Positions 1 to 56,814 of a stretch of DNA of 64,000 nucleotides are shown piece by piece (position 1 is the first letter of the stretch; each line of letters begins with the position of its first letter). The position numbers were made by a program, and so were the translations under genes. Source of the DNA: a virus. Taxonomy: Duplodnaviria; Caudoviricetes. The notes beneath the pieces are model-generated. The model was not told where the DNA came from. It was given only the letters and a program-made list of their open reading frames with translations, and searched no databases. The stretch spans positions 32,001-96,000 of IMG/VR virus record IMGVR_UViG_3300006143_000333, one strand, 5' to 3'.

Positions 1-238
1 TGGTCACATTATTAACCCAAAAAGATGTGACAGCAGAGGCATTTATTGATTTAAAAATGAAAAATAAAGATTCTTTTCAAAGTTTTAATGTTTTAGATGA
101 TAATACATTTATAGATATTAATATTGACGGTACATATATTAAGGTTATGATACATGATGATATTTCGCGATAGAAAATATATGAGATTGCACTTATACAA
201 AATTAATTGAAATGTTGCTTTCAAGTGGAGGTAGAATA

Positions 239-469
239 GTGGATAATTTTAAATTATTTAAGGATATATCAGATGAAGAAATGTTGGAAATGTATAAAGA
301 TATTTTAGGAAGTAAAGAAATGGGGTTGCGACCCAGAAGTTTAGATTCATATGCAAAACAGTTAAAAGAAACTTGTCGTTTTGAAATGTTATCCCAAGCG
401 ACAAATTTTGTGATTGAACTTTTTTATGAAGAAGTTGCACTGAGATATTTTAGGAATATAAACGGATGA
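239..469 (+). CDS. Hypothetical protein
   Basis: GTG after GGAGGT SD; ORF track 212..469. Confidence 0.6.
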   Translation: MDNFKLFKDISDEEMLEMYKDILGSKEMGLRPRSLDSYAKQLKETCRFEMLSQATNFVIELFYEEVALRYFRNING

Positions 470-575
470 AAAAATGATGTTTTAAGTGGAGAAAAAAATA
501 TGATTTACTTGGATTGTGGTAATATGGATATAAGATATGATGAAAAAGAAAAGCGGTTTTAGATCATAAATTTTG

Positions 576-636
576 TTGACTTGTATATAATAACGGCATA
601 TAATATAAGTACAGTAAATAGTACGGTTTTAAGTAC
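576..636 (+). promoter_or_regulatory. SigA promoter and TA operator
   Basis: TTGACT(576)-17bp-TATAAT(599); GTAC cores at 609, 621, 633 with 12-bp period, as in yefM-yoeB operators. Confidence 0.75.
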
Positions 637-651
637 GTAGAGAGGTGCGCT

Positions 652-909
652 ATGATTGCAACGAAACAGATGGATGTAAGAGCAAATATAAAAAAATATT
701 TCGACATGGCGTTTGATGGGGAGCCAGTGATTGTTTCCCGTAAAGAGAATAAAAATGTTGTTATAATATCTGAAGCAGAATATAACGAATTATCAAAAGC
801 TAAGAAGAATGCTGAATATCTAGCAAAATTGAATAAGGCAGATGAACAGATTAAAAACGGTCAGGTGGTAACAAAAACTATGGATGAGCTTCTGGCAATG
901 GAGGAATAG
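652..909 (+). CDS. yefM: Phd/YefM family antitoxin
   Basis: DVRANIKKYFD..GEPVIVSRK..VVIISEAEYNEL pattern; directly upstream of toxin. Confidence 0.85.
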   Translation: MIATKQMDVRANIKKYFDMAFDGEPVIVSRKENKNVVIISEAEYNELSKAKKNAEYLAKLNKADEQIKNGQVVTKTMDELLAMEE

Positions 910-912
910 TCT

Positions 913-1176
913 ATGAAAATCACTTTTGCAGAAGATGGATGGAGTGAATATCTCTATTGGCAGACTCAGGATAAAAAGACAGTAAAGAAGATAAACCAGT
1001 TATTGCAAAGTATAGAACGGGATGGTGTATTACAAGGTATAGGTAAGCCAGAACCATTAAAATATGGGAAGTCGGGATCATTTAGTAGACGAATAGATGA
1101 AGCGAATCGCTTGGTTTATGAAGTTTCTGATGACCAAATTATTGTAAAATCATGCAAAGGACATTATGATGATTGA
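913..1176 (+). CDS. yoeB: Txe/YoeB family toxin
   Basis: YLYWQTQDKK, GIGKPEPLK, SRRIDEANRLVY, C-terminal GHY. Confidence 0.93.
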   Translation: MKITFAEDGWSEYLYWQTQDKKTVKKINQLLQSIERDGVLQGIGKPEPLKYGKSGSFSRRIDEANRLVYEVSDDQIIVKSCKGHYDD

Positions 1177-1179
1177 TAG

Positions 1180-1206
1180 TAGGGATTGAGAATAGATCAA
1201 TCCCTA
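1180..1206 (+). terminator. Hairpin after TA operon
   Basis: TAGGGATTGA-gaataga-TCAATCCCTA perfect 10-bp stem; weak U-tract. Confidence 0.55.
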
Positions 1207-1254
1207 TAGTTAAATTTGAAGAAGTAATTGATGAAAATAATGGAGGAAAATATT

Positions 1255-1716
1255 ATGAGTAAATTTAAAGCATTAGATGTTGGGAAACCTTTTATACAGC
1301 CAGAGAGTCCGTTTTTCTTATTGACGGAAGATTCTGATGGGAATGTGTCTTATTGTTGGTGGGATAATGAAGAAGGACTTCAGGAAGATGCTGTTGAGAG
1401 AAGGGGATCGGGAGAACGGATTATTTGTGCAATTGAGATTTCTTCATGTAGAAATGTGGAAATTCCTCCTGAGTATACTGTGGATGATTTTATAGAGGAA
1501 GTCAATTCTGCTTATGATGATGCAAAAGAAAGAGGATTTGACAGTATTGTTTTAGCGATAGAAACAGATACGGAACAAACATATTATATCAATGACACAG
1601 AAGATGGATTCCAGTGTGATGAATTTGATTATTGCTTTGAAGATTTGGATTCCATTGCAGAAGCATTATTTAATGAGAAAATTATTGGAAAACCTGTGGA
1701 GATTAGAATTGAGTAA
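1255..1716 (+). CDS. Acidic hypothetical protein
   Basis: ATG after GGAGG; ORF track 1228..1716. Confidence 0.65.
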   Translation: MSKFKALDVGKPFIQPESPFFLLTEDSDGNVSYCWWDNEEGLQEDAVERRGSGERIICAIEISSCRNVEIPPEYTVDDFIEEVNSAYDDAKERGFDSIVLAIETDTEQTYYINDTEDGFQCDEFDYCFEDLDSIAEALFNEKIIGKPVEIRIE

Positions 1717-2948: not shown

Positions 2949-2994
2949 ATGGTAGAAATGCCAATGAATTGCTGTTTTTAAGTGGAAGTTTTGA

Positions 2995-3162: not shown

Positions 3163-3185
3163 AAATGAAAGGCTGGATTTATTGA

Positions 3186-4023: not shown

Positions 4024-4779
4024 ATGCGAGGTGCAGATATGAATAATCTTACGAATAAAGAGTTTTTATATTTCCTTTTAGAAAGATGCAAAATAGAAAG
4101 AGAAAAATTTGACAGATCCGGCGTGTATGCATATACACAACGTTTACTTGCCTATAACTCAAATAAGATTGAGGGTAGCACACTTACTGAGGAGCAAACT
4201 GCTTCACTGTTTGATAATGGAATTCTACCTAAATCTGATGATTATTATAGGGCAAAAGATGTTGAGGAAATGAATGGGCATTTTCTCATGTTTAATAAAA
4301 TGTTGGATACATTGGATGAACCGTTATCACAGGAACTAATAAAACAATTTCATTATGAGTTAAAGTCTGGAGTATTTGAGGATAGGGCTAATGGATATGC
4401 AATTGGTGATTATAAGCAGCGTCCTAATATGATAGGTATGTATCAAACTGTAAGACCAGAAGATGTTGCTCAAGAAATTTATTTACTAATGGATTGGTAT
4501 GATGGTCAGGCAATAAATATTTCTGTATTAGCTGAGTTTCATGCAAGATACGAGAGCATTCATCCTTTCCAAGACGGGAATGGTAGGACGGGAAGATTGA
4601 TTCTCTTTAGGGAGTGCTTGAAGAATGGTGTTGTGCCGGTTGTGATTGAAGATTCAAATAGAAATGAGTATCTGGAGGCATTAAAAGAATATAGAGAAGA
4701 AAAATCTTTGAATAAGCTGATTGAGTTGTTTAAAAAAGAGCAGCAATTTTATCTTGAGAAGTGCAACTATTTTATGTGA
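4024..4779 (+). CDS. Fic family protein
   Basis: HPFQDGNGRTGR Fic motif; YNSNKIEG inhibitory-helix-like motif. Confidence 0.92.
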   Translation: MRGADMNNLTNKEFLYFLLERCKIEREKFDRSGVYAYTQRLLAYNSNKIEGSTLTEEQTASLFDNGILPKSDDYYRAKDVEEMNGHFLMFNKMLDTLDEPLSQELIKQFHYELKSGVFEDRANGYAIGDYKQRPNMIGMYQTVRPEDVAQEIYLLMDWYDGQAINISVLAEFHARYESIHPFQDGNGRTGRLILFRECLKNGVVPVVIEDSNRNEYLEALKEYREEKSLNKLIELFKKEQQFYLEKCNYFM

Positions 4780-5369: not shown

Positions 5370-5400
5370 CGAATAAAAGTGAAATTTCATGAGGTGTGTG

Positions 5401-5568
5401 ATGATTTTAAATAATGGATATAGAAAGATAAAGTATTGTGTGGTTAAAGAAATAGAAGTCAATGAAAACTTGTCAGGATCAGAAATAGACGATTATATTG
5501 AAAATATTGCAGAAGGAAAAGATTACGTGTGGTGTGATGCTGATGAGAATTTATTAGACATGAAATAA
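5401..5568 (+). CDS. 55-aa protein, paralog of 2995..3162
   Basis: MILNNGYRKI...GKDYVWCDAD; GAGGTG SD. Confidence 0.7.
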   Translation: MILNNGYRKIKYCVVKEIEVNENLSGSEIDDYIENIAEGKDYVWCDADENLLDMK

Positions 5569-5605
5569 CTATTTTATCATGTAAAGATGAGAGGACTGAA
5601 AGAAA

Positions 5606-7370: not shown

Positions 7371-7538
7371 ATATAGAAACCATAATTTTATCTTTGATAT
7401 TAGCCAGTTTAGCATAGAAAAATCCTTATTTCTATACTAAAAATATGGAAGCAATGGATAAAACTGTAATATGATCAACCATCTATAAGTGTAAAAGCGT
7501 GTAAAATAGGCATTTCTGCATATGAAAATAAGATAAAA

Positions 7539-7781
7539 TTATGGTTTCATCTGTTTTAATAAAAGCTGCATTTGAGGATCGTCAGATGTCAATATTTCAA
7601 TTGGTGAACATTCTAGTTCTTTGCAAATTGACTCAAGTATTTCAAATTTTATAGATGTTGATGTCCCTTTATATATATTATCAATAGTAGGATAGGTAAC
7701 ACCGATACGTTTTGCCAGCTCATATCGAGTCATGCCTTTTTCTTTTAATTTGTTTTGTATAAATATTTTCATATATACCAA
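7539..7781 (-). CDS. XRE/Cro-C1 HTH regulator
   Basis: MTRYELAKRIGVTYPTIDNIYKG..IKFEILESICKELEC. Confidence 0.85.
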   Translation of the reverse strand: MVYMKIFIQNKLKEKGMTRYELAKRIGVTYPTIDNIYKGTSTSIKFEILESICKELECSPIEILTSDDPQMQLLLKQMKP

Positions 7782-7847
7782 CCTTTCTATATATAGAATA
7801 ACATATATATAAAGAAAAGAAAATATAAAAAATAATTATAATAATTG

Positions 7848-7876
7848 TTGACAATATATATAGTTAAGTATATAAT
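7848..7876 (+). promoter_or_regulatory. Consensus SigA promoter for mazF-like gene
   Basis: TTGACA-17-TATAAT. Confidence 0.8.
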
Positions 7877-7928
7877 ATAAAATATCAAAGGCAAAATTAA
7901 GTACATATCACGAGAGAGGAGGATACAT

Positions 7929-8309
7929 ATGGAGCTTCATAGATACGATATTATAGAGGCAGAATTAGATTATGGGACTGGCTCTATTCAGAAAAAGAAG
8001 AGGCCATATATAATTGTAAGTAATGAGAAAGGAACAACAAATGCAAGTATCATTACTGTAATGCCTTTGACTCATATTATAAAAAAGCAGCATCTTCCAG
8101 TTCATGGGTGTTTACAAGCAGAATCTGAGACTGGATTATCTATGTACTCTATGATTCTTGGTGAACAGCCACAAACGATTTGTAAAGAAGAAGTAATTAA
8201 GAAATTAGGGAACGTTTCAGATCGCAAACAGAGAAATAATGTAAATAAAGTTTGTTTCAATACATTTTTCTTTGGAGAAATCATTAATTGGGAAGAGGTG
8301 TTAGCATAA
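7929..8309 (+). CDS. PemK/MazF family endoribonuclease
   Basis: GSIQKKKRPYIIVSN, ITVMPLT, SMILGEQPQTI. Confidence 0.8.
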   Translation: MELHRYDIIEAELDYGTGSIQKKKRPYIIVSNEKGTTNASIITVMPLTHIIKKQHLPVHGCLQAESETGLSMYSMILGEQPQTICKEEVIKKLGNVSDRKQRNNVNKVCFNTFFFGEIINWEEVLA

Positions 8310-8581
8310 TGAATGTTATTGTGTGTTCTGTAAAAGAAGCATATAAGTTAATGGAACATATGGATGAAGAGGATATGGTTGTATTAACTGTTTTGAACAA
8401 GAAAACTCATATTCATAGTATTCCGAAAAGAATTAAGAAGAAAAATGGAGAAGAATTAATAAAACGAGCAGATAACATTCTTTATCAAAATAATAATTTT
8501 TTTGGCATGTTGTCATTGTATGGAGTTACAAAAAAGGAAAAAGATACCATTCATAACATATCTTTTCCACAATTAGAATAA
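8309..8581 (+). CDS. Hypothetical protein coupled to mazF-like gene
   Basis: TAATG stop/start overlap, GAGGTG SD. Confidence 0.6.
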   Translation: MNVIVCSVKEAYKLMEHMDEEDMVVLTVLNKKTHIHSIPKRIKKKNGEELIKRADNILYQNNNFFGMLSLYGVTKKEKDTIHNISFPQLE

Positions 8582-8587
8582 AAATAC

Positions 8588-8639
8588 AAACTAATGTTCG
8601 ATTTTCTTATTGACAAGAATATATGTTCGGGGTTATAAT
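8588..8639 (+). promoter_or_regulatory. SigA promoter with LexA (Cheo)-like boxes
   Basis: TTGACA(8610)-18-TATAAT(8634); GAAT-atat-GTTC (8617) and AAAC-taat-GTTC (8588) versus GAAC-N4-GTTC. Confidence 0.65.
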
Positions 8640-8655
8640 ACCATCAGAAACAAAA

Positions 8656-11947: not shown

Positions 11948-12431
11948 ATGAGATACATAAGTGATGATGGGAAAGTATTCAATACTGAACAGGAATGTTG
12001 CGAACATGAATACAAGATAGAACAGGAAAGAGTTAGAGAAGAAAAAATAGAGATGGAACGTCAGAATAGGTTAGATTCTATTAATAAAAAGTATGAAGAT
12101 TTGCAGAAAGAGATTTCTGAATATAAAAAGGATTATGGTGCTAGATTAGAAGGATATTTTACACCATTCCATGAGTTGTTGGATATATTATACAGATAGT
12201 TTGAAAGCCGCATTTCATTGGGAAAAATAGGAGATTTTTATGAAAGCAAGAATAGTTAAAGATGGAAATTTTTGGATTGGAGAAGTTTATGGACATTGGA
12301 ATATGTTTTTTGGACTAGAAGAAAGAATTTGTTGGGGTTCTGTAACAAGTAGATGCTTTACAAAATTTGGGGCAAAACTTGAATTAATGAAGTGGAAAAG
12401 AGAACATAGCGGAGAGGAATTTGAGTTATGA
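11948..12431 (+). other. Two small hypothetical ORFs (11948..12199, 12240..12431)
   Basis: ORF track with SDs; separated by junction repeat 12202. Confidence 0.6.
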
Positions 12432-13333: not shown

Positions 13334-13590
13334 AATTATGGATATTAGTAAAGCTGAAAAAATTGGTAAAGTTATGAATAATATTAATCGTTGCAAAAGT
13401 TTTCTTGGTTGCTTGAAAGACAGGGGTTATCCTGACAGCTTTGAAATCTATTATAGAGATTATAAAGCTTGTGATCTTGAGGAAGATGTATTGGATATTA
13501 TTATTGAACACTACGAAAACGAATTGGAGAGATATAACGAAGAGCTGAAAAAACTTTAAGCATTGAAACTAACATTTCAAGTCAATATAG

Positions 13591-17500: not shown

Positions 17501-18744
17501 ATGAAAAACAAAATAGAAGAAGCAAAAGATTTAAAGTATCGGTTAGAAAATAATAAAAAGATAGTCCAATATTGTCTTGGAAAACAGGAAGATAATGACG
17601 GCGGATTTATTCATAATCCCAATAATGATAAACATAATTTTGTGTTTTCTACCACACAACATCATTCATCAAAACCAATATATTTAGATGCTTACTATGG
17701 ATATTATGGCAATAGTAATGTATCTATGTTTAATGATGAATTTTACATTACATGTATGGTAGAAGCAATAAATAAATTTCTTCCTCAACTTAGGGAAGAA
17801 ACAGAGAAAATTATGGGGCAGAAATACAATGAAGCACTATTAGAGGCGAAAGGTGAAGCTGAGAAGATTCTTAAAACAATTGAAGATCTAGGTTTGAATT
17901 AGGCAATGAAAAATTCATTTCAATTATTACAGAAGGAGAGGTCATGATTAATATAGAGAAAACAGATAGTATAGAACAAGAATATTTACAGTGTTCAAGC
18001 TGTTTAAAATGTAATGATGATTTAAATATGTTTAAAATCATTGTTGGTAAAAATATGAGACAAACAACAACTGTGAAATTATGCGAAGAATGTATGCGTG
18101 ATTTATTGGAAGATTTAAAAAGATTGGAAATTAACGGTCAGATATAAGTGGCAATGAATATTTGATTTTGTGGTGTGAGGTGATAGGATGACAGAGAATG
18201 AAGCAATCGCAAGAATGAGGTACAGAATAGATACAGCAACAGAAGCAATTGGAAAAGGTTCTGATGGTAAGGCTTATGAGGATATGGAAATCGCAATTAA
18301 AGCACTTGAAGAAATTCAACAGTACAGAGTAATTGGGACAGTTGAGGAATGTCGAGAGGCACGGGAAAGGCAGATTGGGAAGAACCCCATAATTTTAAGT
18401 GAGCAATCTGTAGAATCAGAGAAAAAATTATATATAGCAAAGTATTTCAAATGTCCTACTTGCGGAAACACATCTACATATTTCGGAGGACTACCTAATA
18501 ATTGTCATAATTGTGGTCAGAGGTTGGAGAGTGATGCCACATGACCTACCAAAGAGCAGACCAAAAACATCCATTAATGGGGCTTGATAATAAAATCTGT
18601 AAAAATCCTGCCTATTGGTGTAGGTTACATCAAGTCTGGTTGTCTGATGATGATGTAAAGAAGAAACAATGTAAATGTAAACAGACTTTTGACATGGTTG
18701 GTACATATTGTTGCGGAAATTTAGTCAAGAAGTCAATAAAATGA
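17501..18744 (+). other. Four small ORFs (17501..17902, 17944..18147, 18188..18544, 18541..18744), several with CxxC motifs
   Basis: ORF track with SDs; junction repeats at 17907, 18155, 18737. Confidence 0.6.
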
Positions 18745-18807
18745 AACTTTCAAGTAAGAAAAGAGAAATATATATATCACAAAAATGAAAAGGAGAGATG
18801 ATAAGTT

Positions 18808-21315: not shown

Positions 21316-21545
21316 TGGAATATATTTTGTTTTCATTTATATTGGCTGGAACACCTGCTTTATATACTGGATATTGTAATAAATTGAGAGACTTAATTCG
21401 ATTAATTTTCATCATAACATTTATCGTAATCTATTATATTAATAAATGGGAAACCGCAGATATTAATGTGGGATTATTCGTTTGTTGGTGTGCAGTATGG
21501 ACGATATTTTGGGATAATTTATATAAGAAACTTAAAAGGAAATGA
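21312..21545 (+). CDS. Small membrane protein
   Basis: Three hydrophobic segments; stop codon is the left arm of repeat 21543. Confidence 0.6.
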   Translation: MMEYILFSFILAGTPALYTGYCNKLRDLIRLIFIITFIVIYYINKWETADINVGLFVCWCAVWTIFWDNLYKKLKRK

Positions 21546-21570
21546 AACACGAGTTTTAAGGAGGAAAATT

Positions 21571-23905
21571 ATGAAATCAGTAGAAGAAAGAATTACAAAT
21601 AAGATTGAAGAAAGTGAAGATGGAGTGTTGATGAAGTTCCTTGGAGCTAAAAATGTTGAAAGACTGAAAAAGGAAGTTACAGATGCAATTATTCAACAGG
21701 TAATCAAAGATTTACATGATAGTTGTGATTATATAATTAGCCCAGACGATATAGTGCAAGACATTATTGATGATATTATAGATTCTGCTAATAAGAATAT
21801 TAGACCGAAAGTAGAAAAGCTGTTGTATAAGAAAGCTATGGAAAAATTAGGATTAGAGGAATAGTTTTAAAATTTCCGTTTTAAGGCTATTTTAGAGAAA
21901 GGATAATAATATGAAAAATTACATAGAAGAATTAAAACAGGATGATCCTAACGCAATGATGACCCCACAACAGTATTTTGATTCTATGAAGGAAAAGAAA
22001 AACACCGTATCTTCTGAAGATTTAAAGAAGATTTATGATAATTGCTTGGAACTTGCGAATAAATATAGGATTACTGGTCAAGTGCGTGGGCTGAGAAAAA
22101 TATTGTTCTGTATGGAGTCTATAGAAAAAGAACAAAAACTTGTAGATATGGGCATTACAACTTTTATCTATAAAGATGATATTGATTTCTATATTGATAG
22201 CGTCGTTAAGAGTAGAAAAAGAGATGAGAAGCCGATTAAAATTATTGAATTAGAGCGATATGAAAGAGAAATTCCTGATGAGATTGTAGAGGTAATTGAC
22301 AAAACTAAGGAATTATTTGACCAAATGTATATTGTATATACTGATTATACTGGCAAAGAAGAGCGTAAAATTGAAGCAGAACGAAAACAAAAAGATCCTA
22401 TTCTTTTTGGAACCTTTCAAAATAAAAAAAAGAAAGTGTGTATTGACAGATTCTATTATCTTGGTGATTGGATTGACGAATTTTGTGATTTGACACTTGA
22501 CAAAATGATAAATGAAACTGAAAAGTTGGGCAGAAATATTGTTAGGACAATAACAACTCCGAAAGATGTAGAAGGATTAAGAAAATATATTGATGCTCAT
22601 TATGAAGTAGAAAAGGATAGTATTTCAAAGATTATTAGAAAAGCAGATGCAGATTTTACGCCAAAGATTAGTTTGTTTTCAAAGGTTAAAACTGTGTTCA
22701 GTAGAAAGAAGTAGATATGATACAAGACTTAACCGCAAATAGAGATTTTCAAAACGATAGAGATTTGAGTATTTTATCAAATTTAATAAGACAGAGTTCA
22801 ACTCAGGATGATTTAACATCTCTATATGATGAAGTCGTATTAACAGGAACAACTTTTGATCGTGACCATAAACGTTATATTTTGGACTATGAAAGCGAAC
22901 AAAAGAATATGTGTGATTGCTGTGGTTCTCCAATTAGAATTCGACCTTGGGATTTTGAAGAAAACAAAACGCTATGTCCTGCGTGTGAAAAATGGTTAGA
23001 AGAATCACAAAACAGGAAATATGATGGAGAACTGCTTGAAGAAATAATAGATGATTCGTGGTCTATAAGAATTGTAAAGCCCTGGGATATAAATGATTTT
23101 GAAAGAGAAAATGCAGTTGATAATGTATTATTGTGGGACTAGATAAAACGAAGGTTTCAAGTAAAAATGAGGTGGTAATTTGGAAAATATTTTAAGTAAA
23201 AATAATGACGGATCAATAGATGTCATGGACAGATATGGATTTACGGAATATACAGTTGCCAAGAATGAAAATGGTATAGTAGCTAGATTGGCAAATCAGT
23301 TATATGAATATGAGAATTTCTTTACAGAAAGGCTTAAAGATGTATTGATGAATTACTTTGATGTTCCATCTGACACATATGCGTATAATCTAACAAGACA
23401 TAAAACTGCTTTTTCTGAAGTAACCATATCTCTTGATGATTTTGAAGAATTTGATGAAGAAATCATTGATGATATTGTGAAGTATATCAAAGACAATATT
23501 TAGCCAATAGAAGAAACATTTTAACTGGATGGAGGTGTGTTCGTGTATCAGAATTGTTGTAAAAAATGTGGAAGTATCTCATTACATACAGAAGTAAAAG
23601 GTAATAACACTGGTTTATATTGTGATGATTGTGGAGCCTGGGTGAAGTGGTTAGGTAAGGATGAACTTAGAGCGTTTGAACATAGTCAGATAGAGAGTAA
23701 CAAGTTATCTAATAAAAACATAACTGCCAGACTAAAAGAGTTTGTTGAATTTCTTGAAAAGAAAATTGATTCTGAATATGATAATTTACCAAATTCAAAA
23801 GATGATGCAATTAGAAAGAATGTTTGCTGTGCAATTATGGAACGAGATAAAAATGCAATCATCAACATTATAAACGGGCATGATTTTAATTATATAGAAG
23901 AATAA
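21571..23905 (+). other. Five hypothetical ORFs (21571..21864, 21911..22714, 22717..23142, 23180..23503, 23537..23905)
   Basis: ORF track; junction repeats at 21543, 21868, 23144, 23508. Confidence 0.65.
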
Positions 23906-24011: not shown

Positions 24012-24252
24012 GTCGGTAATTCCACAAATTAAAAATTGAATACAGGTGGTGATATTTATATAGAAACTTTTTATCATGGAACATCTGATACTTTAGATGT
24101 GAACAAAATAATTAGCTGATAAAGCAGTAGTAATAGGACAAATTTAGTCTTGAAATAAATCTTTCATAGAAAAAGAAATAGTAAATATAAGACGAAAGGA
24201 GTAAGAGGTTTGCTGTCCAGCATTAAAGACTGTCTTTACTCTAAAAGGTATA

Positions 24253-25107
24253 TTGGAAACAAATAAAATTTATTGTGGTAATTGTATTGATATTCTTAAA
24301 TCTTTCCCTAATAAAAGCGTGAATTGTTGCATAACAAGCCCACCTTACTATGGATTAAGAGATTATGGCGTAAGCGGACAAATCGGAAACGAAGATACAC
24401 TAGAACAATACATAGAAAATTTGGTAAATGTATTTGAACAAGTAAAAAGGATTTTAAAGGACGATGGAGTTCTTTGGTTAAATCTTGGTGATAGTTGGCT
24501 TGGAACTGGTGGAGAGGGAAGATATAAAAGAAATCAAAATATGAAGGCATCAGGAATAAAATGCAAAGACTTAATAGGTATTCCGTGGATGGCAGCATTT
24601 GCATTGAGAGAGGCTGGTTGGTATCTTCGTCAAGATATAATTTGGGCAAAAGGAAATCCAATGCCTGAAAGTGTTAAAGATAGATGTACAAAATCTCATG
24701 AATACATATTTTTGCTTTCCAAATCAAGAAAATATTATTTTGATTATGAGTCTATAAAAGAACCAGCAAAATATCCTAATGATAATCGTGGAAGCAGAAA
24801 TGATAGTCGTAGAGGAACAAAAATGAATAGCATAAGTGGTGTCACAGGGGAAAAGCGCAATAAGCGTGATGTATGGAATGTAAATACAAAACCATGTAGA
24901 GAAGCACATTTTGCAACATTTCCAGATACACTGATTGAACCATGTGTATTAGCTGGTTGTCCTGAAGGTGGCATTATCTTAGACCCATTTATGGGAGCAG
25001 GAACAACGGGAATGGTCGCAAAAAGACATAATAGGAATTATGTTGGAATTGAATTAAATCCAGATTATGTTCAGATTGCAGAAAATAGAATAGAAAAGAA
25101 GTCTTAA
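24253..25107 (+). CDS. N4/N6 DNA methyltransferase (beta class)
   Basis: ITSPPYYG, HFATFP, LDPFMGAGTT. Confidence 0.92.
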   Translation: METNKIYCGNCIDILKSFPNKSVNCCITSPPYYGLRDYGVSGQIGNEDTLEQYIENLVNVFEQVKRILKDDGVLWLNLGDSWLGTGGEGRYKRNQNMKASGIKCKDLIGIPWMAAFALREAGWYLRQDIIWAKGNPMPESVKDRCTKSHEYIFLLSKSRKYYFDYESIKEPAKYPNDNRGSRNDSRRGTKMNSISGVTGEKRNKRDVWNVNTKPCREAHFATFPDTLIEPCVLAGCPEGGIILDPFMGAGTTGMVAKRHNRNYVGIELNPDYVQIAENRIEKKS

Positions 25108-25131
25108 AACCCACGTTTCAAAGGAGATAAG

Positions 25132-27958
25132 ATGAAATATTTTAATGTTCCACAATGTTATAAAGAGAAAATAGTAGTTATTATAGACGGTGCTTTTAAA
25201 GGAGTTATTGGTGTATTAACATCATTAGAAATGAGTTATTTAAGAGAAACAACTTGTAAAATTAATATAGACTACAGAAATACAATCACTGTCAATTATA
25301 ATCAAATTATTTCTTTGGATATATCTGTATTTGAAGATTGTGACATTGATATATCTAATGAAGATGGTACTTTTAAAAATGTATTTGAAATTATAAAATA
25401 TGGAGAAAAAAATATTATGCCAACAAAATCATTTGATTTAGAACTTATGGGAATTAAGAATCTTCATTTCTATATTGCCAAACCAGAAATAGTAGATGTA
25501 AATATCGTTGTGCCAGGCAAGGTTGTAGAAGTAGTTTTTGCAGATGGGACAAAAGAGAAATCTGTATGTAGAGAACCTGATACATTTAGTTTAGAATCCG
25601 CAATTTCAATTTGCATTTCTAAGAAAATTATGGGTGGATCTTCTGCTTATAATAATGCAGTTAAGCATGGTATGAAGGTTTATGAGGACAAGCAGAAGAA
25701 AGAACTTGCTAAAAAAGAAGAACAGGAACGCATTGAGAAGAAACGTACTAAGAGACTTGCTTATAAGGAGCGTAGAGCTGCTAAGAGGGCTGAGGAAGAG
25801 AAACGGAGAAAGGCTAGAGAACGTGAAGAGCAGATTGCGATTCAGACGGAGGCATATCTGAGAGTGATGAAAGAAATAGGTAGTATTCAGTACAATCCAG
25901 CAAAAGAAGTGTTTAGTTAATTTATTTTATCACTGTCTCTCGTCAATATTATTTATATTTGGCGAGAGATTTTATGAAGGGAAGGAATATATATTTTTAT
26001 GACTAACGAAGAAATAATTAGAAAGAGAGTAGCAAGGGAAATATTATCCATGATTGAGACTATTTGTTTCAGCGAAGAATTTAAAGATTTTAGAATCGGA
26101 CAAGGAAGTAATGGGACAAGGGATTTAATTATTGAACGCATAAAGAATACATATGACATTGGATGAAATCTGCGATTTATTGGGAGGTTAATGGATTTGA
26201 AGGAATGTAGATTCTGTAAAGATAGAACAAGATGTGAATATGCTATGAATGATTATCCTGGCTCTGGCGATCTTTGGAAAGCAAAGAAATATTGTGAAAA
26301 AATTCAGAGACAAGAAGTAGAAACTATTAGCGAAAATGACAATAAAGTATTTAAAGAAAAAGTAGAAAAATTTCTTTCACAAGGATATAAAATCTCTTCT
26401 ACCAATTGTGGTTATGCTGGAGAAGTTGGTGGAAATGTATACGATTGCGAATACTGGATGGCGATTTTGATTAAGGAGTGATTGAATATGAAAGACATAA
26501 ATATTATTATCAAAGACGCTTTTGGAAGAGAAATCAAAACTAACACAGATCAGATTGAGGAAGATGTTCTGCGAATGAGAATAGGATTGGAACCACAGGA
26601 ACAGGATGGTGACTAATGCGTAGAAGAATCACAGGCAATATTTATACTGGTCTTGGGAATCCATCGCCAGTAATTTTTGACAACGAATGGACAGATAATA
26701 AAAAATTTAATGATGCTGTAAAGTTGTTCTTTGAAGATATTCTAAATTTATTAAAAGACGAAACTATTAATAGTGTTGGTGGTTTTGATTTCAAAATAGA
26801 ATTAGAAAATAACAGTTTTAAAATCTTATTTGGTATTGAGCCATCATATATGTATGATTCATATATCTGCTATTGTTTTGATAGTGAAAAAGAGAATAGT
26901 TATATACATAAAGAACGGGCTTTTGGGTATTATGGTGCTGACATTAAAATTAAATCGAATAAAAGTTATAAGAGATGTGGTAAGGAATTTAGTGAATGTA
27001 TGGATAAGTATTATGAAAATTTGATGAGGTGTTTAAGTGAATAATGGAATATTTGCAAAGTATACAGGAATTCCAATAATAGTTGTTCCTGATAGTAAAA
27101 AGCAAAATAGAACACATAGGAAAAAGAGAATTAACAAGAAATGGGCTAAAAGATATGGATATACAACATATAATTCCATTGAAGATGAACAGATCATTAC
27201 AATGAATGGAAGCATGTATGTGAATCCGAGAACTTATTATAAGCTAAAATCTCTTGAATTATATACTTAGAAATTCATTCTGTGTGGGAGGTGAATAATG
27301 AATTCAAAATATGAAAATATGTCTTTAAAAGAAATTATTAGACAGATAGAAAAGAAGGATAAAAGAATTGCTAAGTTGGAGAAAAAAGTTTCTGATATGA
27401 ATGACACCATCAGAACAATCGGTAATCAGAATCGTAAACTGAAAAGAAATAATGAAAGATATCAGGAACGATTAACAGAAGTTTTATATAAAGGTGAGAT
27501 TAAGAATTGCTCAACATGTAAAAATAATGTTAAATTTCCTCCTCCTCATACTTGTGATATTTGTACCAGTTTAGACCAGGAAGAAGAATATGAGATGTGG
27601 GAGGAAAGGATTGAGATTAATTGATGCAGATAATTTAACAAAAGAAACAGAAAAATCTATGCATGACAATCCTCATAAAAATAGACAAATTTCTCAAAAT
27701 CATTTAACAGAACATATTCATTTTTTGTCATTAATTGGAAGACAATCAACAGTAACAGATGATAGAATTACGAAAGCATTGGAGCTTGTATGGAATTATG
27801 GTCAAATTGATGGAGATAATCATAAGACATGGATTATTGATCAAATTGTTAGAATTTTGTGTGGTAGTAATGAGGAATATAAAAAGTGGGTTGATAAATA
27901 TGAAGAACCTTTAGAAGATGGTGATTATTACAGTTGGAATCAAGGTATCAATTCTTAA
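25132..27958 (+). other. Run of hypothetical ORFs (25132..25920, 26191..26481, 26616..27044, 27037..27270, 27298..27624, 27590..27958)
   Basis: ORF track, plus-strand SDs. Confidence 0.6.
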
Positions 27959-27996
27959 ATCTTGCATTTCATTGGCAAAAAAACGGAGGTTAGAGA

Positions 27997-32444: not shown

Positions 32445-32795
32445 TAGGCAATAAATTCGAGATTTTAACTGAGGAGATGATGAATGATTATAGGAAAATT
32501 TATAGGTACAAATTCTTGCGGTTTTAAAAAAGGAGGTACATATATGATAAAAATATCAATAAAGAGATTTCAAGGAAAGTATTGTATATTCTTACGGGAT
32601 CTTAAAAGCAATGCAGAATGTCCATATTCAAGTTTAGATAGTTTGTTACGAAATTGGATGATAATAGGAGAATGATTTGAACCCAGATGTAGAAGATATA
32701 TTCTGAGATGAAAGGTCAATGTATTAGGACTTATTATTTTTAACATTCTTTTGTTATAGATGTTATAAAACAGATATAAAATATAAGGAGGACAA

Positions 32796-39070: not shown

Positions 39071-39083
39071 AGGAGCTGAGACT

Positions 39084-39380: not shown

Positions 39381-39652
39381 ATATAGATGAAAAATCTGTT
39401 TCATCGCAGGAGGTGATTTAGAGTGTATGTTACAAACCTTTGAAGAAATGTGTGATAGCGAAGAGATTTGTAGTTATTGCTCTCATACAGAATATGGAGA
39501 ATATAAGTCTGGTGTTACACCAAATGGATATTGGAGTTGTGAGGGTAGTTGGTGTAAAGACGCATATGAAGATTATTTAGATGAGAATGGAACAACAGAT
39601 AATATTGTAAAATATGCAAGTGTTGTTAAATTGGTAAACAGGGAGGAATTTA

Positions 39653-41548: not shown

Positions 41549-41762
41549 AGGCGCCTCCTTTTCAGGAGGAAAAATTAGCTTAATGTGTTCGTAAATATAA
41601 TTATAACACAAGTGACTAAAATAGTAAAGAAATAGCAATGAAAATTTCGATTCATTGGTAGTTTAAAAGTAGAAGTAACAATTAAGCATGTGCGAAAAGT
41701 AATCAAACAGGAGGAAATGAGGTTTCTGCGCAGAATAAATCATGATTTACTCCTAAAGTTAT

Positions 41763-42602: not shown

Positions 42603-42623
42603 TCTTAAAACATCGGTTTCAAA

Positions 42624-42797: not shown

Positions 42798-43853
42798 ATG
42801 AATAGAGATATAGGTGCTAAATTACCACAAACAAATTGTAGAACACCAATGCAACCTGTAAAGGAATTTGGTGAAAAAATTTGTGAGAATTGTGATAAAG
42901 AAGATGTGTGTATGTATAAAGAAGAGTGCATAAAAGCTATAAAGGATATTTTGGATATCGAGAGTAGAACTAATGTGTTTATTAAAACACATATTGATTG
43001 TAAGAAGTGGAGTAAGAAGTCAAATATAAATGATATTGCTTACAGATAAAATTTTCATTTCAAAGGAAGGAGAAATATGTTTCAAAATATAGTTATTTGT
43101 GATAGATGTGGAGAAAAGGCAAATTTTTGTGGAACTTCCTATTATACAATACATATTTCTGCCCATGATATAAATCCGACTAATGACGGACGATTATATG
43201 TTGATACGGCAGTTCAGAATGTACATGAGAATATGAGTAAGATTTTTGGTAAAGAACGTCATTATTGTAAAAAGTGCAAAGAGAAAATAGAAAAATTTAT
43301 GAGCGAGGTAGATGATGACAATAGAACAGAAAATTGATTATATGATTCAGTCTTTACAGTTAGCAAAAGAAGAAATTACTTATGCAAAATGGTATACAGA
43401 AGGAAAAGAAAAAGATCGAAATTTTGATTGGTATGATCATCCTGGATATCAAAAAAGAAGTCCAAACGGAACAATAATAAGAGAATCATTAAAGATGGTA
43501 GGTAGAATGGCTAATATAATGGCAAATAGTATTTGTCTAAGCCCATATAATAAAAATTTGTATAAAGAATAAATCAACTCTTTCATTGAGAAAATAGGAG
43601 GGATGACTTGATTGTTGGAGGATATGATACCGATGATTTGACAGATAGACAAAATCATGTATTTCGTAAATTATATAACAATCCAGTAGCCAATAATAAT
43701 CTATTAGCTTTGAATTTTCTATCTTATTCTGTACGTAAAAATTTTAGATGTAGAGAATTTTATAATTATGAAGATGATTGTGATTACTTGTTAAGGATAG
43801 AAAAAGAAACATTAAGCAAATATGGAATAGATTTAAAAGAACTGTATACTTAA
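42798..43853 (+). other. Four small ORFs (42798..43049, 43077..43337, 43312..43572, 43608..43853)
   Basis: ORF track; stops at 43047 and 43570 form left arms of junction repeats. Confidence 0.6.
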
Positions 43854-45555: not shown

Positions 45556-45893
45556 TCTTGAAATTTTGCTTTCATTGAGTCAGGGGGAAGATGTGGAAGA
45601 ATTAGAAAAAATATTAAAACAGATGGCGAATCAACCAATACAGGTGCTTAAAGAGCCAGAAATTTATTACATAGTAAGTATCAAGGAAAGATATATTTAT
45701 GACTTACATTTAACCACAATTACTAAAGAATTTTGTGGACGAATAGAGAATCAAACAAGCACAAGCATTTATTTTAGACTTAATGGAAGTGATGCTTTAG
45801 TAATAATTCCTCATAACTGGATTGAGTGGATGGCACCAGCAAAAGAACTATGGCAAGCAATATAAAAATAAATTATAAAGGAGAAAGAAATTT

Positions 45894-47194: not shown

Positions 47195-47236
47195 GGACTT
47201 AAAACCAGAGTTTCAAGGGAGATGGAGGTGATATAA

Positions 47237-48031: not shown

Positions 48032-48465
48032 AGGATAGTAGAGGTGATTTTTATGAGTGAATATGTAGAATTACCAAAAGGTTATAACTTTGATACGGTA
48101 TTTGATACTTATATTTTGGCGTTTTGTCCAGATACAGATTCATGGTTCGCTACTAATCAAAGGTTTTTCTATTATGAATACCAAAAGGAATTTAAAAGCG
48201 AATCTGAAGCAATAGAGTATTTTAAAAATAATCCAAATATATTTTTAGAACAAGAAGAAAGAATGAAAGTATATCGTCCAACCTTTTATGCTGAAGGAGT
48301 ATATTTGGATAATACAAAAGAACTCATAAAAGTATCAATGAAAGGTTAATTTCATGGAATAAAAATAGAAGAAATATGATGTGATAGTTGCAAATATCAC
48401 AAATAAAATTAGGAGGAAACGAGATTTGACTGGTCGATAAATGTACATTTGCTCCTAAAAAGTAA

Positions 48466-49467: not shown

Positions 49468-49716
49468 AATGGACTTAAAATCTTGGTTTCAAGTGGTGGG
49501 AGGGAAAGAGTATGGTAAAACATTTTTGCGATATGTGTAAAAAAGATTCAAAAACAAGTTTGGTAAATCTTCCTTCATTAGAACAACATGGAACAGATAA
49601 TGATGGATATCCAGTTTTTAAAAAGATAATAAGAGGTTTTGATATTTGTGATAATTGTTTAAATGAAATGTCAAAGAATTTTTATGAAAAATTGAAATGG
49701 TAGAGGAGGTAGGAAC

Positions 49717-52263: not shown

Positions 52264-52482
52264 TTGGAGTGGATCAAATGTATTTCTGGTCAAATGCCAG
52301 AAGATGATGAAAGATATAAAGGTAAAAAAGTTATTAATGTTATTGCCACCACTAATAAAGGGGTTGTTACGAAGGTACAAAGGATTTTTAATGATTATGC
52401 TAACACTTGGTATTGGGGAAGGATATGTGGAGGTATGAGGGCATGGATGCCGTTGCCTGAGCCATACAAAGAGAAGCATTGA
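52264..52482 (+). CDS. DUF551-like phage protein
   Basis: MEWIKC..MPE, AWMPLPEPY. Confidence 0.7.
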   Translation: MEWIKCISGQMPEDDERYKGKKVINVIATTNKGVVTKVQRIFNDYANTWYWGRICGGMRAWMPLPEPYKEKH

Positions 52483-52528
52483 AAGCACGATTTCAAGGTT
52501 GTTTAAATAGAAACGGAGGTAAGCTTAT

Positions 52529-54358: not shown

Positions 54359-54405
54359 AAACGCACTTGAAACCCAATTTTAAGATTTAAATGAGGTGAT
54401 TTTGA

Positions 54406-54885
54406 TTGTTAATACCTGCAATTTTAAAGAAGAATGAAATACAGGAAGCATTTAAGAGATATTACTATTCAGATGATATGATGTACGAAACTGGTGGTTT
54501 AAATAATTGGCTGCCAAATATCCAAGAAGAGACTGAAATAGGAAGGTTTCAATTTGCTATTGTAAATTCAGAAGAAAAATTAGTTGGATATTTTGATTAT
54601 CATATTGATTGGTATAATTCTTGTGCTTCCAGATTTGGATTGATTTCTTTTGATAGAGGCAACCCAATTGTAGGGATGGATTTATATAGTGAATTGAAGA
54701 AACTTATTTATGAGTACAATCTACATAGAATTGAATGGCGAATGATAGGTGGCAATCCAATAGAGAAAAATTATGATAAATTTTGTGATAAGTTTGGTGG
54801 TACCAAGCACATTTTGAGAGATGCTGTTAAAGATAAATACGGCAAATATCATAATGATATTATTTATGAGATTATCAATGATTAA
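54406..54885 (+). CDS. GNAT (RimJ/RimL)-like protein
   Basis: KLVGYF, NLHRIEW..GNP, G..RD..GKYHN..IYEI. Confidence 0.5.
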   Translation: MLIPAILKKNEIQEAFKRYYYSDDMMYETGGLNNWLPNIQEETEIGRFQFAIVNSEEKLVGYFDYHIDWYNSCASRFGLISFDRGNPIVGMDLYSELKKLIYEYNLHRIEWRMIGGNPIEKNYDKFCDKFGGTKHILRDAVKDKYGKYHNDIIYEIIND

Positions 54886-55288
54886 GAAGGAGAATTTGTA
54901 AATGGATTGTAAATATCCGATTGAAAGTAGAAGTTATAAAGTATGTATATTGTGTTCTGAGAAAAATATCTGCGAAAATTCAACTATCGTAAATGATACA
55001 GCAACATTATTATCTGCAAGTGAATCACATAAAAAGACAGTAGATAATATTAAAAATTGTTCAACAAAAGAATTAGCAGAAATCAGTAAAAGAATTAGTG
55101 ACGCTATTGCAAATGGAAAGTTTTCTATTAGTGATGATGGTTGTTTACAATATGAAACAACTCAAAGATTAGAAGAACTTGGTTATAAAGTTCAAACTGG
55201 AAGCCAATACAATGAGCAGTATTGGAGTATTAGCTGGAAATAACAGTTGAAACCGAAATTTCATTTGAAAAATAAAGGAGTGAGATGT

Positions 55289-55744
55289 ATAGAAAAAAGG
55301 ATTTTAGATGTATGCTGCGGATCAAGAATGTTTTGGTTTGATAAGCATAATGAAGATACAGTATTTATGGATAACAGAATACTACATGATACATTGTGTG
55401 ATGGTAGAAAATTAAATGTTGAACCAGATGTCATAGGAGATTTTAGAAATATACCTTTTAATGATGATACTTTCAATATGGTCGTATTTGATCCTCCTCA
55501 TCTTTTGAAAGTTGGAGAAAGTTCATGGTTGGCCAAGAAGTATGGAAAACTAACTGAGAACTGGAAAGAAGATTTGAAGTTGGGATTCAAGGAATGTATC
55601 AGGGTACTAAAGCCAGGAGGAAGTTTGATTTTTAAGTGGAATGAACAACAAATAAAATTGAAGGAAATATTGAAGTTGGTTGATATTGAACCTCTTTTTG
55701 GTAATAAAAGAGCAGATACACATTGGGTTGTGTTTATGAAATAG
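55289..55744 (+). CDS. SAM-dependent (probably DNA) methyltransferase
   Basis: ILDVCCGSRMFWFDK, VFDPPHL, RVLKPGG; ATA behind AAGGAGTG. Confidence 0.8.
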   Translation: MEKRILDVCCGSRMFWFDKHNEDTVFMDNRILHDTLCDGRKLNVEPDVIGDFRNIPFNDDTFNMVVFDPPHLLKVGESSWLAKKYGKLTENWKEDLKLGFKECIRVLKPGGSLIFKWNEQQIKLKEILKLVDIEPLFGNKRADTHWVVFMK

Positions 55745-55791
55745 GACTTGAAAGCGTTCTTTCATTTGGTAAATAGAGAAAAGGGAGGTAC

Positions 55792-55989
55792 ATATTAAAA
55801 AGATTTTTACTATGGATTTTAGTCATTATTCTTGGTGTTATAGTATTGTCACTACTCTATGCTTTGGGATATATGTCAGCAACAAGTAATGTAAGTTCAT
55901 TTGTACGAATAGTTATTGGAACTATAGCATTATGTATTGCAGATATAAAAAGTTATTTGCAATGGAAAGTTATTAATTGGAACAAATAA
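55792..55989 (+). CDS. 65-aa two-TM protein, ATA start
   Basis: LKRFLLWILVIILGVIVLSLLYALGY...; GGGAGG SD, short spacing. Confidence 0.45.
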   Translation: MLKRFLLWILVIILGVIVLSLLYALGYMSATSNVSSFVRIVIGTIALCIADIKSYLQWKVINWNK

Positions 55990-56013
55990 GGATTTGGAAA
56001 GGAGAATGAGATA

Positions 56014-56409
56014 TTGAAAGAAGTAATTTTGATTTTATGTATGCTATTTTGTCACATTGTAGATGACTATTACCTACAAGGATGGCTTGCATCAGCAAAA
56101 CAGAAAAAGTGGTGGAAACAAAACGCCAATAATCCATTATACAAAAATGATTATATTATGGCGTTGGTGGAACACGCATTTAGTTGGAGTTTTATGATCC
56201 ATATTCCAATTATTGTTTATTCTTTAATTTGCGGATTGCAACTAAACATCTTGTTATTCATTGCAATATTTACAATGAATTGGTTGATACACACAATTAC
56301 GGATAATGCAAAAGCAAATTTGATGAAAATTAACCTAATTCAAGATCAGTGGATACATATAGCACAGATTTTTGTTACATGGACAATATATGTGGTGATG
56401 AGTAGATAA
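56014..56409 (+). CDS. DUF3307-like membrane protein
   Basis: HIVDDYYLQ, H..D..K, DQWIH. Confidence 0.7.
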   Translation: MKEVILILCMLFCHIVDDYYLQGWLASAKQKKWWKQNANNPLYKNDYIMALVEHAFSWSFMIHIPIIVYSLICGLQLNILLFIAIFTMNWLIHTITDNAKANLMKINLIQDQWIHIAQIFVTWTIYVVMSR

Positions 56410-56412
56410 AAT

Positions 56413-56460
56413 ATACAATATACAGTATTTGTATAGAAATCAAAACACAATATATTGATG
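56413..56460 (+). promoter_or_regulatory. Tandem NrdR-box-like pair
   Basis: ataCAATATACAGtat (56413) and acaCAATATATTGatg (56445), 32 bp apart. Confidence 0.55.
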
Positions 56461-56814
56461 TAAAAAGCGGTTGAAATTCTTATTTCATTGGGTGAGTTTG
56501 GAGGTGATTTGATTATGAGTGATATGTTTACAGATGCAAGTCCATTAAGTTGTAGTTTAGAAAAACTCAATGATTTTTATTTTAAAAATGGCGAAAGAGA
56601 AATTGTTACACAAACAAGTAATGGTAGAAATTGTAGAACTTGTTGTAAAGTAACTGTTTGTAAATATTCAGAAGAAGTGGTTGAAAAAGTAGAAAATCTA
56701 ATTGGCGAAATCTCTAAAATGAATTTACCATTATCTGTTAATATTAATTGCCAAGAATGGGCAGATAGAAAAACAAGTACATTGAGATAAAAATGGAATG
56801 TGAGGTGATAATAC

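Follow-up and report, generated by a model that had tools for sequence, protein, structure and literature searches.

What are the short inverted repeats that punctuate the gene junctions of a large phage, and why does the centre of each one differ? This question is raised by a stretch of 64,000 nucleotides (positions 32,001 to 96,000 of IMG/VR record IMGVR_UViG_3300006143_000333; Duplodnaviria, Caudoviricetes), which we call the window when its full length is meant. An initial annotation, made from the sequence alone, had described here an integron-like array of gene cassettes bounded by copies of TRAAA-N6-TTTYA. We give about an even chance to a different reading, in which the copies form an ordered array of Xer/dif-like core sites, the 6-bp spacers are addresses of slots, and an Xer-like enzyme carries out conservative site-specific exchange at them. 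The record as a whole is 128,958 bp long and incomplete (CheckV completeness 71%). It has 32% G+C and carries nearly all of its genes on the + strand, and no terminal repeats were found in it. The window covers its accessory cargo region. Genes were called with a crude, purpose-made open reading frame (ORF) caller.

An inverted repeat with a 6-bp spacer at gene junctions

The window contains 24 exact TRAAA-N6-TTTYA sites, whereas 100 dinucleotide shuffles of it gave 3.22 ± 1.86 (maximum 9). These figures agree with the 23 sites and approximately three expected that were reported in the initial annotation. There are 38 sites in the whole genome. When the arms were kept and the spacer was changed to 2-5 or 7-11 bp, the genome yielded only 3-10 matches per length, which marks the 6-bp spacing as specific. 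When inverted repeats of every 5-mer with a spacer of 6 were counted without bias, TGAAA came first, with 19 copies versus 0.8 at neighboring spacings. The relaxed form, T[AG]AA[AT]-N6-[AT]TT[CT]A, was found 71 times at spacer 6 and 12-33 times at other spacings, which fits the roughly 12 additional near-strict copies noted earlier. Inverted arms around a 6-bp center have the geometry of a tyrosine-recombinase core site, as had been pointed out, and this is the only spacing that was enriched.

The sites have a characteristic placement. Although intergenic DNA makes up 15% of the genome, 32 of the 38 strict sites are intergenic (P = 6e-21), which answers the question of whether the motif is enriched at junctions relative to coding sequence. 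Most sites start 2-9 nt past the upstream stop codon or use the stop codon as their left arm, and the right edge of the site lies 12-30 nt upstream of the next start codon. The claim that the sites sit at or just after stop codons and before the next ribosome-binding site is borne out by 23 of 38 sites (61%) that begin no more than 12 nt from the stop of an open frame, compared to 4% of random positions. A stop codon had been said to form the left arm at six positions. This is so for the strict sites at 21543, 25105 and 43047 and for the near-strict sites at 27956 and 43570, and at the sixth, 52480, the listed ORF 52264-52482 ends within the arm. The core blocks and the ATPase-Ter operon had been described as free of sites, and we observed no strict sites in 7534-12202, 32452-39388 (the ATPase-Ter block) or 56472-64000 of the window.

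Two strict sites lie inside conserved coding sequence, at genome positions 23665 and 120547 (window -8335 and 88547). At 120547, similarity to the related genome G002 shifts sharply at the in-gene site, which may mark a domain-level exchange point.

Spacers recur by position in related phages

Searches with a core protein and with the Thg1-like protein each returned about 80 loci, on viral contigs of 90-215 kb. Close relatives reside as proviruses in the genomes of two mouse-gut Lachnospiraceae, Roseburia sp. 1XD42-69 and Acetatifactor muris DSM 23669, and these phages are temperate. The core block had zero nucleotide matches in the INPHARED phage collection. The family is SPbeta-like because the relative G001 encodes a YonO-type polymerase with an RdRP fold. 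The protein in question, at L207:2849-5539 in an area beyond this record, is 896 aa long and belongs to a eukaryotic-type RdRP fold family (PF05183, E 1.8e-13).

Four related phage genomes (G001-G004) were compared for spacers. Together with G005 they contain 38, 43, 22, 29 and 17 copies of the motif, compared to 13, 8, 8, 0 and 3 copies of a control pattern. The relatives are collinear yet extremely mosaic. Between 16 and 59 of approximately 200 ORFs have a tblastn match in any one relative, G001-G004 each share less than 30% of their genes with this phage, and nucleotide similarity is confined to patches of 65-98% identity.

Despite this mosaicism, the same 6-bp spacer was found in at least one of G001-G004 for 35 of 38 strict sites and 53 of 71 relaxed sites. 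Any two of the five genomes have 20-41 spacers in common, versus 0.5-1.4 by chance, and in all ten genome pairs the longest collinear chain takes in all, or all but one, of the shared spacers. Within one genome the spacers are all different except for one background pair; with one repeat observed and a few expected, this count is too weakly powered to show depletion. The sites of the window are listed here in window coordinates, without a strand (.), and "common to" means that the same spacer is present.

208..223, strict, spacer TGTTGC; collinear in G002, G003 and G004
2965..2980, near-strict, TGAAT-TGCTGT-TTTTA; same spacer, collinear, in G001-G004
3166..3181, near-strict, TGAAA-GGCTGG-ATTTA; common to G001 and G002, also to L206
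4788..4803, near-strict, TGAAT-GTTCAG-TTTTA; common to G001
5374..5389, strict, spacer GTGAAA; common to G001, G002 and G004
5561..5576, strict, spacer TAACTA; common to G001 and G002
7534..7549, strict, spacer TTATGG; common to G001; left-flank homology with G002 stops at the right edge of the site
12202..12217, strict, spacer GCCGCA; left border of the Thg1-like slot; common to G001, G003 and G004
13564..13579, strict, spacer CTAACA; common to G001, G002 and G004
17907..17922, strict, spacer AATTCA; common to G003 and G004
18737..18752, strict, spacer TGAAAC; left border of the diversity-generating retroelement (DGR) slot; common to G001-G003; homology with G003 begins at the site
21543..21558, strict, spacer CACGAG; right border of the DGR slot, left arm is a stop codon; common to G001 and G003
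21868..21883, strict, spacer TTTCCG; common to G002-G004
23144..23159, strict, spacer CGAAGG; common to G001, G003 and G004; one-sided homology in G003
24151..24166, strict, spacer TAAATC; common to G001 and G003
25105..25120, strict, spacer CCCACG; left arm is the stop codon of an N6/N4 methylase gene; common to G001, G003 and G004
26164..26179, near-strict, TGAAA-TCTGCG-ATTTA; common to G001, G002 and G004
27956..27971, near-strict, TAAAT-CTTGCA-TTTCA; left border of the RNA-repair block; common to G001 and G003
32452..32467, near-strict, TAAAT-TCGAGA-TTTTA; left border of the ATPase-Ter slot; common to G001-G004
39388..39403, strict, spacer AATCTG; right border of the ATPase-Ter slot; common to G001-G004
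41639..41654, near-strict, TGAAA-ATTTCG-ATTCA; common to G002 and G003
42606..42621, strict, spacer CATCGG; common to G002-G004
43047..43062, strict, spacer TTTTCA; left arm is a stop codon; one-sided homology in G001 and G003; no exact spacer match in G001-G004
45559..45574, strict, spacer TTTTGC; common to G001-G004
47200..47215, strict, spacer CCAGAG; common to G001 and G002, with only the left flank homologous, and to G004, with only the right flank homologous
48339..48354, strict, spacer GGTTAA; common to G001 and G004
49476..49491, strict, spacer TCTTGG; common to G001, G002 and G004
52480..52495, strict, spacer GCACGA; common to G001 and G002; left flank 99-100% identical in G001 and G004, with homology ending at the site
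55248..55263, strict, spacer CCGAAA; common to G001-G004
55749..55764, strict, spacer GCGTTC; 16-mer identical or near-identical in G001-G004, flanks mostly different on both sides
56472..56487, strict, spacer TTCTTA; common to G001-G004

The DNA around a shared site is usually unrelated. In 197 of 288 shared-site pairs, neither 60-nt flank aligned above the 99th percentile of random pairs, and direct inspection confirmed identical 16-mers set in unrelated sequence. We identified 83 slots that lie between the same two consecutive addresses in two genomes; 42 of them carry unrelated cargo, 33 partly related cargo and 8 homologous cargo. The slot with the ATPase-Ter genes (window 32452-39388), for example, is 6920 bp long here but 1964 bp in G002, where the DNA is unrelated, and only 202 bp in G004. 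Specificity of the spacing and identical 16-mers amid unrelated flanks together rule out chance or vertical conservation alone as the source of the pattern. Where both flanks were homologous, with a mean identity of 90%, the spacers were identical in 72 of 74 pairs versus 41.6 expected. A protein that ignores the spacer does not explain this conservation, and a requirement that partner sites match does. On the basis of these sequence comparisons, each site carries a conserved positional label that is tied to position and not to cargo.

Gene exchange at the sites

The proposal that the sites delimit gene modules was supported by gene order in the relatives. Among informative junctions of the accessory region, 40 of the 133 that lack a site have the same two genes adjacent in a relative. 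The figure is only 2 of 45 where a strict site is present and 2 of 30 where the site has one mismatch, or 4 of 75 in total (odds ratio 7.6, Fisher P = 1.3e-5). In pairwise alignments, homology begins at the left edge of a site or stops at its right edge.

To locate the exchange points we used 498 distinct site instances from all loci and selected pairs in which one 40-nt flank was at least 75% identical and the other was non-homologous by local alignment. The spacer was identical in 400 of 451 pairs sharing the left flank and in 131 of 140 sharing the right flank, counts that are descriptive. The arms behaved differently from each other. When the left flank was shared in the TRAAA family, the left arm was identical in 59 of 60 pairs and the right arm in 22 of 60 (random expectation 29%); of the 21 pairs that shared the right flank instead, all had the same right arm and 12 the same left arm. 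Because the spacer and the near arm are retained and the far arm is not, the comparisons place exchange inside the site. The initial annotation had asked whether breakpoints in relatives fall there, and they do. As read from the alignments, ancestry switches between the variable positions of the two arms, within a core of approximately 12-14 bp that contains the spacer. The sites thus appear to be the places where these phages exchange genes.

The motif is a double-stranded protein site

Covariation between the arms was examined in 185 distinct sites pooled from six genomes. The left-arm R and right-arm Y occurred as G/C in 76, A/C in 49, G/T in 37 and A/T in 23 of the 185, which is exactly the expectation for independent positions. 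Complementarity of the conserved W at -1 and +16 was no commoner than chance, and there was no base pairing at outer or inner positions of the pooled sites. An RNA or single-stranded DNA stem would disfavor A/C; since A/C occurs at the independent expectation, an attC-like mechanism and RNA operators are excluded. A hairpin of any of the kinds considered (regulatory stem-loop, processing site or attC-like fold) was therefore rejected, the paired positions being independent here and likewise in the second arm type described below. The motif is a double-stranded protein site, and the covariation data point to a dimer that reads two half-sites one helical turn apart.

Information content is near zero beyond -1/+16, with only a weak signal as far as -4/+19. 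The arms are symmetric, and there are no separate XerC-type and XerD-type arms. The spacers are enriched in G+C (about 45-46% versus 32% for the genome). We also considered a promoter or a terminator. Consensus scans of 20 kb holding 8 sites were at chance, with 105 promoter-like matches versus 101 expected and 2 terminator-like matches versus 6 expected, and the gap from a site to the start codon is too short for either; both possibilities were rejected.

Arm types across lineages

The majority of distant relatives are without the TRAAA motif and carry A[AG]GAA[AT]-N6-[AT]TTC[CT]T (the ARGAAW type) in the same place, past the stop codon and ahead of TTGG and a ribosome-binding site. This pattern occurred 198 times at spacer 6 versus 19-32 times at the other spacings tested (3-9), and zero times in the genome studied here. 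Whole ARGAAW-type genomes have 11-14 such sites versus approximately one at control spacings. Pairs of these genomes share 2-5 addresses in the relaxed form NRGAAW-N6-WTTCYN, all collinear, versus approximately 0.1 by chance, and an identical spacer likewise recurs between different flanks. In three genomes, 54-73% of ARGAAW-type sites are adjacent to a stop codon; for G006, G011 and G015 such figures are unreliable, as genes lie on both strands and the orientation rule is ambiguous.

Other genomes have the TRAAA arms and few of the addresses. Those beyond the G000-G004 group (G005, G011, G014 and G015) have the same arms and fewer than four addresses in common with the group. The arms thus set a broad group and the spacers a narrower exchange group. 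One of them, G014 (a relative of 212,684 bp, L313-L323), has almost only TAAAA-N6-TTTTA, with 32 perfect palindromes versus 3.5 at other spacings, and may reflect a shifted arm preference. A small number of TRAAA-type sites also recur across the ARGAAW-type genomes G006-G010, such as T[GA]AAA-AATTGC-TTTCA, which is present in G006-G010, G013 and G014; the two site types may thus coexist.

Candidate recombinases

The initial annotation placed the recombinase beyond the window. This holds for an Xer-like gene at genome 25807-26835 and for a second, conserved one in a region of the relatives that this record does not cover. This genome encodes two tyrosine recombinases, a 405-aa integrase at the right end and the 342-aa Xer-like protein of 25807-26835, and no serine recombinase was found in it. 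The 342-aa protein gave full-length matches to XerS, XerA, XerC and XerD models, all below the cut-offs, and its best NCBIfam match was XerS.

G001 and G002 contain a third Xer-like gene, which lies on the opposite strand, after an HU-like gene and to the left of the start of this record. It is predicted to encode a protein 317 aa long whose R, K, HxxR, H and Y positions align to those of XerC/XerD/XerA. The protein has 60 relatives at 51-100% identity in the phage family and is 61-81% identical among five TRAAA-type genomes, with the G014 copy at 63%. All seven carriers of this gene that were tested are TRAAA-enriched (28-43 sites versus 5-13 for the control). By contrast, five ARGAAW-type genomes (CheckV 86-100%) are not enriched in TRAAA sites (7-13 versus 2-8) and have proteins that are at best 22-29% identical to it. 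It is suggestive that the TRAAA arm co-varies with a conserved clade of Xer-like recombinases in these comparisons. In G001 L207, an HU/IHF-type protein (8923-9198; PF00216, E 2.7e-35), a 210-aa protein (9212-9844) and the 317-aa Xer-like protein (10001-10954) are encoded consecutively on the opposite strand, and a junction site lies 3 nt past the stop codon of the recombinase gene.

Other proteins were also considered. No MrpR/SroF chain matched the 317-aa protein even at E values up to 10, and integron-integrase models, whose cut-offs are 265-435 bits, scored 27.8-50.8. A conserved DNA-binding candidate of a non-recombinase kind was sought among the 32 genes that this phage has in common with G001 and G002, and none was found; these genes encode GmrSD-N-like, Fic, LemA, sigma-like, ligase-like and unknown proteins.

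A model for exchange and its alternatives

In the model that we favor, the sites would be duplex cores for a dimeric tyrosine recombinase of the Xer/Cre ("simple") type, with inverted arms of 5-6 bp (W-T-R-A-A-A) flanking a 6-bp overlap. Strand exchange would need matching overlaps and the overlap differs at every junction, so the only partner open to a site would be the one with the matching address in a co-resident genome, either a co-infecting phage or a prophage. A single crossover would swap genome arms, and crossovers at two neighboring addresses would trade the intervening genes. Within one genome, the differences between overlaps would block deletion or inversion, and the location between a stop codon and the next ribosome-binding site would keep exchanges in register with whole genes. 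The arm sequence would set compatibility groups between phage lineages. We infer that a recombinase rather than another protein binds the sites and that overlap identity is mechanistically required; as to which recombinase acts on them, the proteins described above are candidates only. The fuller proposal, that this is a natural genome-wide cassette-exchange system with approximately 50-70 Xer-type sites, 6-bp overlaps as unique slot addresses and a phage-encoded Xer-like recombinase, we hold tentatively, at slightly less than an even chance.

Several observations weigh against this model. Only 5-6 bp are conserved per arm, compared to 11-13 bp in the arms of known Xer, Cre and FLP sites, and phage annealing recombinases might need no more than 16-18 bp of identity. 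The exchange-point counts come from site pairs that are not phylogenetically independent. The conserved 317-aa recombinase falls outside this incomplete record, and the association between arm and recombinase, drawn from two or three lineages, is confounded with phylogeny. In same-arm genomes, the proteins syntenic with the 342-aa one are 33% identical or undetectable, and it has one close IMG/VR relative only; this weakens the case for the mid-genome gene as the common enzyme, and the protein looks like cargo itself. In ARGAAW-type genomes the corresponding locus holds three unrelated recombinase types, 21-30% identical, and no single recombinase type was found for that lineage. Finally, integrase-fold proteins of SPbeta-like phages are known as pure repressors (PMC10516654).

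There is one main rival explanation, which we regard as unlikely, though deserving of serious weight. The sites could be operators or transcription roadblocks for a dimeric phage regulator, perhaps of integrase fold, with homologous recombination, general or phage-encoded, occurring at the only 16-18 bp conserved between modules that are otherwise unrelated. Exchange would then be a by-product, as has been suggested for the promoter-early stem-loops (PeSLs) of T4-type phages. A palindrome that is independent of the spacer sequence is what a dimeric DNA-binding protein would recognize, and a location between stop codon and ribosome-binding site resembles that of stoperators in short intergenic regions (PMC9283540). 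The phages are temperate, have nearly all genes on one strand and belong to an SPbeta-like family, and in SPbeta the repeated SPBRE elements are bound by the master repressor MrpR/SroF, a protein with the fold of a tyrosine recombinase (PMC10516654; bioRxiv 2025.11.27.690993). The conserved Xer-like gene is oriented opposite to the main coding direction, and PeSLs show that regulatory motifs can mediate modular exchange (PMC2839356). However, a regulator blind to the spacer leaves unexplained why spacers are conserved in excess over flanking coding DNA and why they are retained even where both flanks have been replaced. The spacers are GC-enriched. The island of identity is also just 16-18 bp, which is at or below the usual minimum for homologous exchange. 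Promoter and terminator signals near the sites do not exceed chance. All positions of the catalytic motif are preserved in the Xer-like protein but lost from MrpR (PMC10516654), and the SPBRE and SroF boxes lack symmetry and are recognized by a monomer. An operator function is possible as a second or primary role of the bound protein, and recombination and regulation could coexist.

Two further explanations also start from features of the sites. Nuclease targets commonly take the form of a bipartite palindrome with a fixed N6 gap, and breakpoints are concentrated at the sites in a genome that encodes several DNA methylases and GmrSD-N-like proteins. The sites might then be targets of a site-specific nuclease or nickase, homing-type or restriction-like, whose breaks drive repair recombination with co-resident relatives. 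We consider this improbable: break repair needs two-sided homology, yet at the majority of shared sites one or both of the joined flanks lack homology, with the change falling exactly at the site, the need for matching spacers is unexplained, and no nuclease was linked to the motif. Still less probable, to the point of being very remote, is the integron-like capture and shuffling of the initial annotation, in which cassettes bearing their own site are excised as circles and re-inserted elsewhere in shuffled order. Sites directly past stop codons, mostly promoterless units and the presence of tyrosine recombinases are in keeping with it, and the spacer differs in 6-11% of pairs sharing one flank, so that some movement between slots is possible. 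But there is no arm covariation of the kind a hairpin would leave, and site identity follows position rather than cargo in an order that is strictly collinear in all ten genome pairs. Spacers are not repeated within a genome save for the one background pair, and the sites span approximately 80 kb with no single insertion point. Integron-integrase models score far below their cut-offs, and no integron-type arrangement of integrase, attI and Pc was found. "Integron-like" is the wrong model for this array.

Comparison with known systems

The logic of the phage array is that of recombinase-mediated cassette exchange with heterospecific lox/FRT sites. There, arms are identical and overlaps different, only like sites recombine, and the segment between unlike sites is exchanged rather than deleted. 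That design is artificial and engineered, with 13-bp arms and an 8-bp spacer. Our literature search found no natural genome-wide array of this heterospecific kind and no paper on ordered, spacer-addressed palindromes in phages.

The closest known system is the dif modules (pdif, XerC/XerD) of Acinetobacter Rep_3 plasmids (PMC13141974, PMC6449649). In both, many Xer-type core sites with arms and a 6-bp center delimit discrete modules on one replicon, and the module content varies between related replicons. Sites of the pdif type react when their spacers are identical or nearly so (PMC13141974). The replicon here, however, is a temperate phage of 130-160 kb with approximately 50-70 sites, and its arms are symmetric with 5-6 bp conserved, whereas pdif sites have 11-bp XerC and XerD arms in alternating orientation. 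Spacers here are unique per genome and keep their order across genomes, pointing to in-place exchange and not shuffling, and the candidate recombinase is phage-encoded while pdif uses host XerC/D.

Single-recombinase systems (difH/XerH, difSL/XerS and archaeal dif/XerA) resemble the phage sites in having a palindromic core with a central region, which is where exchange occurs in these systems (PMC5357621) and where it is proposed to occur here. The inner arms of difH (AGTTATGAAAA) and difSL (TTTCCGAAAA), ...TGAAAA and ...CGAAAA, adjoin the central region and resemble TGAAA (PMC5357621). The phage proteins also score best on XerS, XerA, XerC and XerD models, but far below the equivalog cut-offs of these models. 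Unlike the phage sites, difH, difSL and archaeal dif occur once per chromosome, serve dimer resolution and have 10-11-bp arms.

Regulatory motifs of phages share other features with the array. PeSLs are short conserved intergenic motifs in hyperplastic regions that mark the ends of insertions, deletions and replacements (PMC2839356, PMC4122927). They comprise a sigma-70 promoter and a terminator hairpin and support homology recombination between any copies, whereas the phage sites are without these signals and have position-specific centers. The stoperators of cluster A mycobacteriophages and the SPBRE/MrpR (SroF) system of SPbeta likewise have dozens of short motif copies in short intergenic regions of a temperate phage (PMC9283540, PMC10516654), and the SPbeta binding protein has an integrase fold. 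Both systems illustrate that numerous scattered sites can be targets of a repressor. Stoperators and SPBRE are asymmetric and monomer-read, with SPBRE in approximately ten promoter regions, unlike the symmetric palindrome studied here. No position-specific variable center and no link to exchange points have been described for them, and the phage sites show both. MrpR is without catalytic residues, whereas the 317-aa Xer-like protein keeps the motif positions. Integron attC sites also follow stop codons and bound promoterless cassettes, with a tyrosine recombinase involved as in our proposal; but attC is 57-141 bp long, acts as a folded single strand and travels with its cassette in variable order, and the 16-18-bp phage site has none of these properties.

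Cargo of the window

The genes carried between the sites include the following, in window coordinates.

1911-2948, TnpB-type protein (OrfB_IS605 and Cas12f-like TNB domain), within one slot and with no TnpA nearby
4039-4779, Fic/DOC-family protein, among the best-conserved cargo genes, with 85-92% identity in G001, G002 and G004
7929-11805, site-free "core block" with MazF-like, sigma-70-like and GmrSD-N-like proteins, 33-79% identity across G001-G004
12428-13333, Thg1-like enzyme in its own slot, apart from the RNA-repair slot
18737-21543, DGR slot including a reverse transcriptase, among the conserved slots
27997-32444, RNA-repair block in a single slot: RlaP-type nucleotidyltransferase, CCA-adding/poly(A) polymerase with an HD domain, DHH phosphoesterase and RNA ligase
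32796-36839, P-type cation ATPase followed by vWA-TerF-like and TerD proteins, in the ATPase-Ter slot

The sigma-70-like protein of the core block has weak region 2/3 matches and is a sigma factor by PHROG. Further cargo includes a radical-SAM protein and a DNA methylase.

Implications

Phage genomes are mosaics, and the mechanism that joins unrelated genes cleanly at their borders is debated, the proposals being illegitimate recombination combined with selection, or recombination at conserved linkers. Here the linkers are explicit, having the shape of a recombinase site and a positional label that outlasts the surrounding genes. If the array works as we propose, multiplex genome engineering would gain a ready supply of recombination sites, dozens in number and mutually incompatible. 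Should a recombinase act on the sites, large temperate gut phages of a widespread family would possess a mechanism dedicated to modular evolution. Such a mechanism would account for the trade in defense, anti-defense, DNA-modification, RNA-repair and DGR modules, and related SPbeta-like phages of gut Lachnospiraceae could swap any slot precisely, in register and without deletions.

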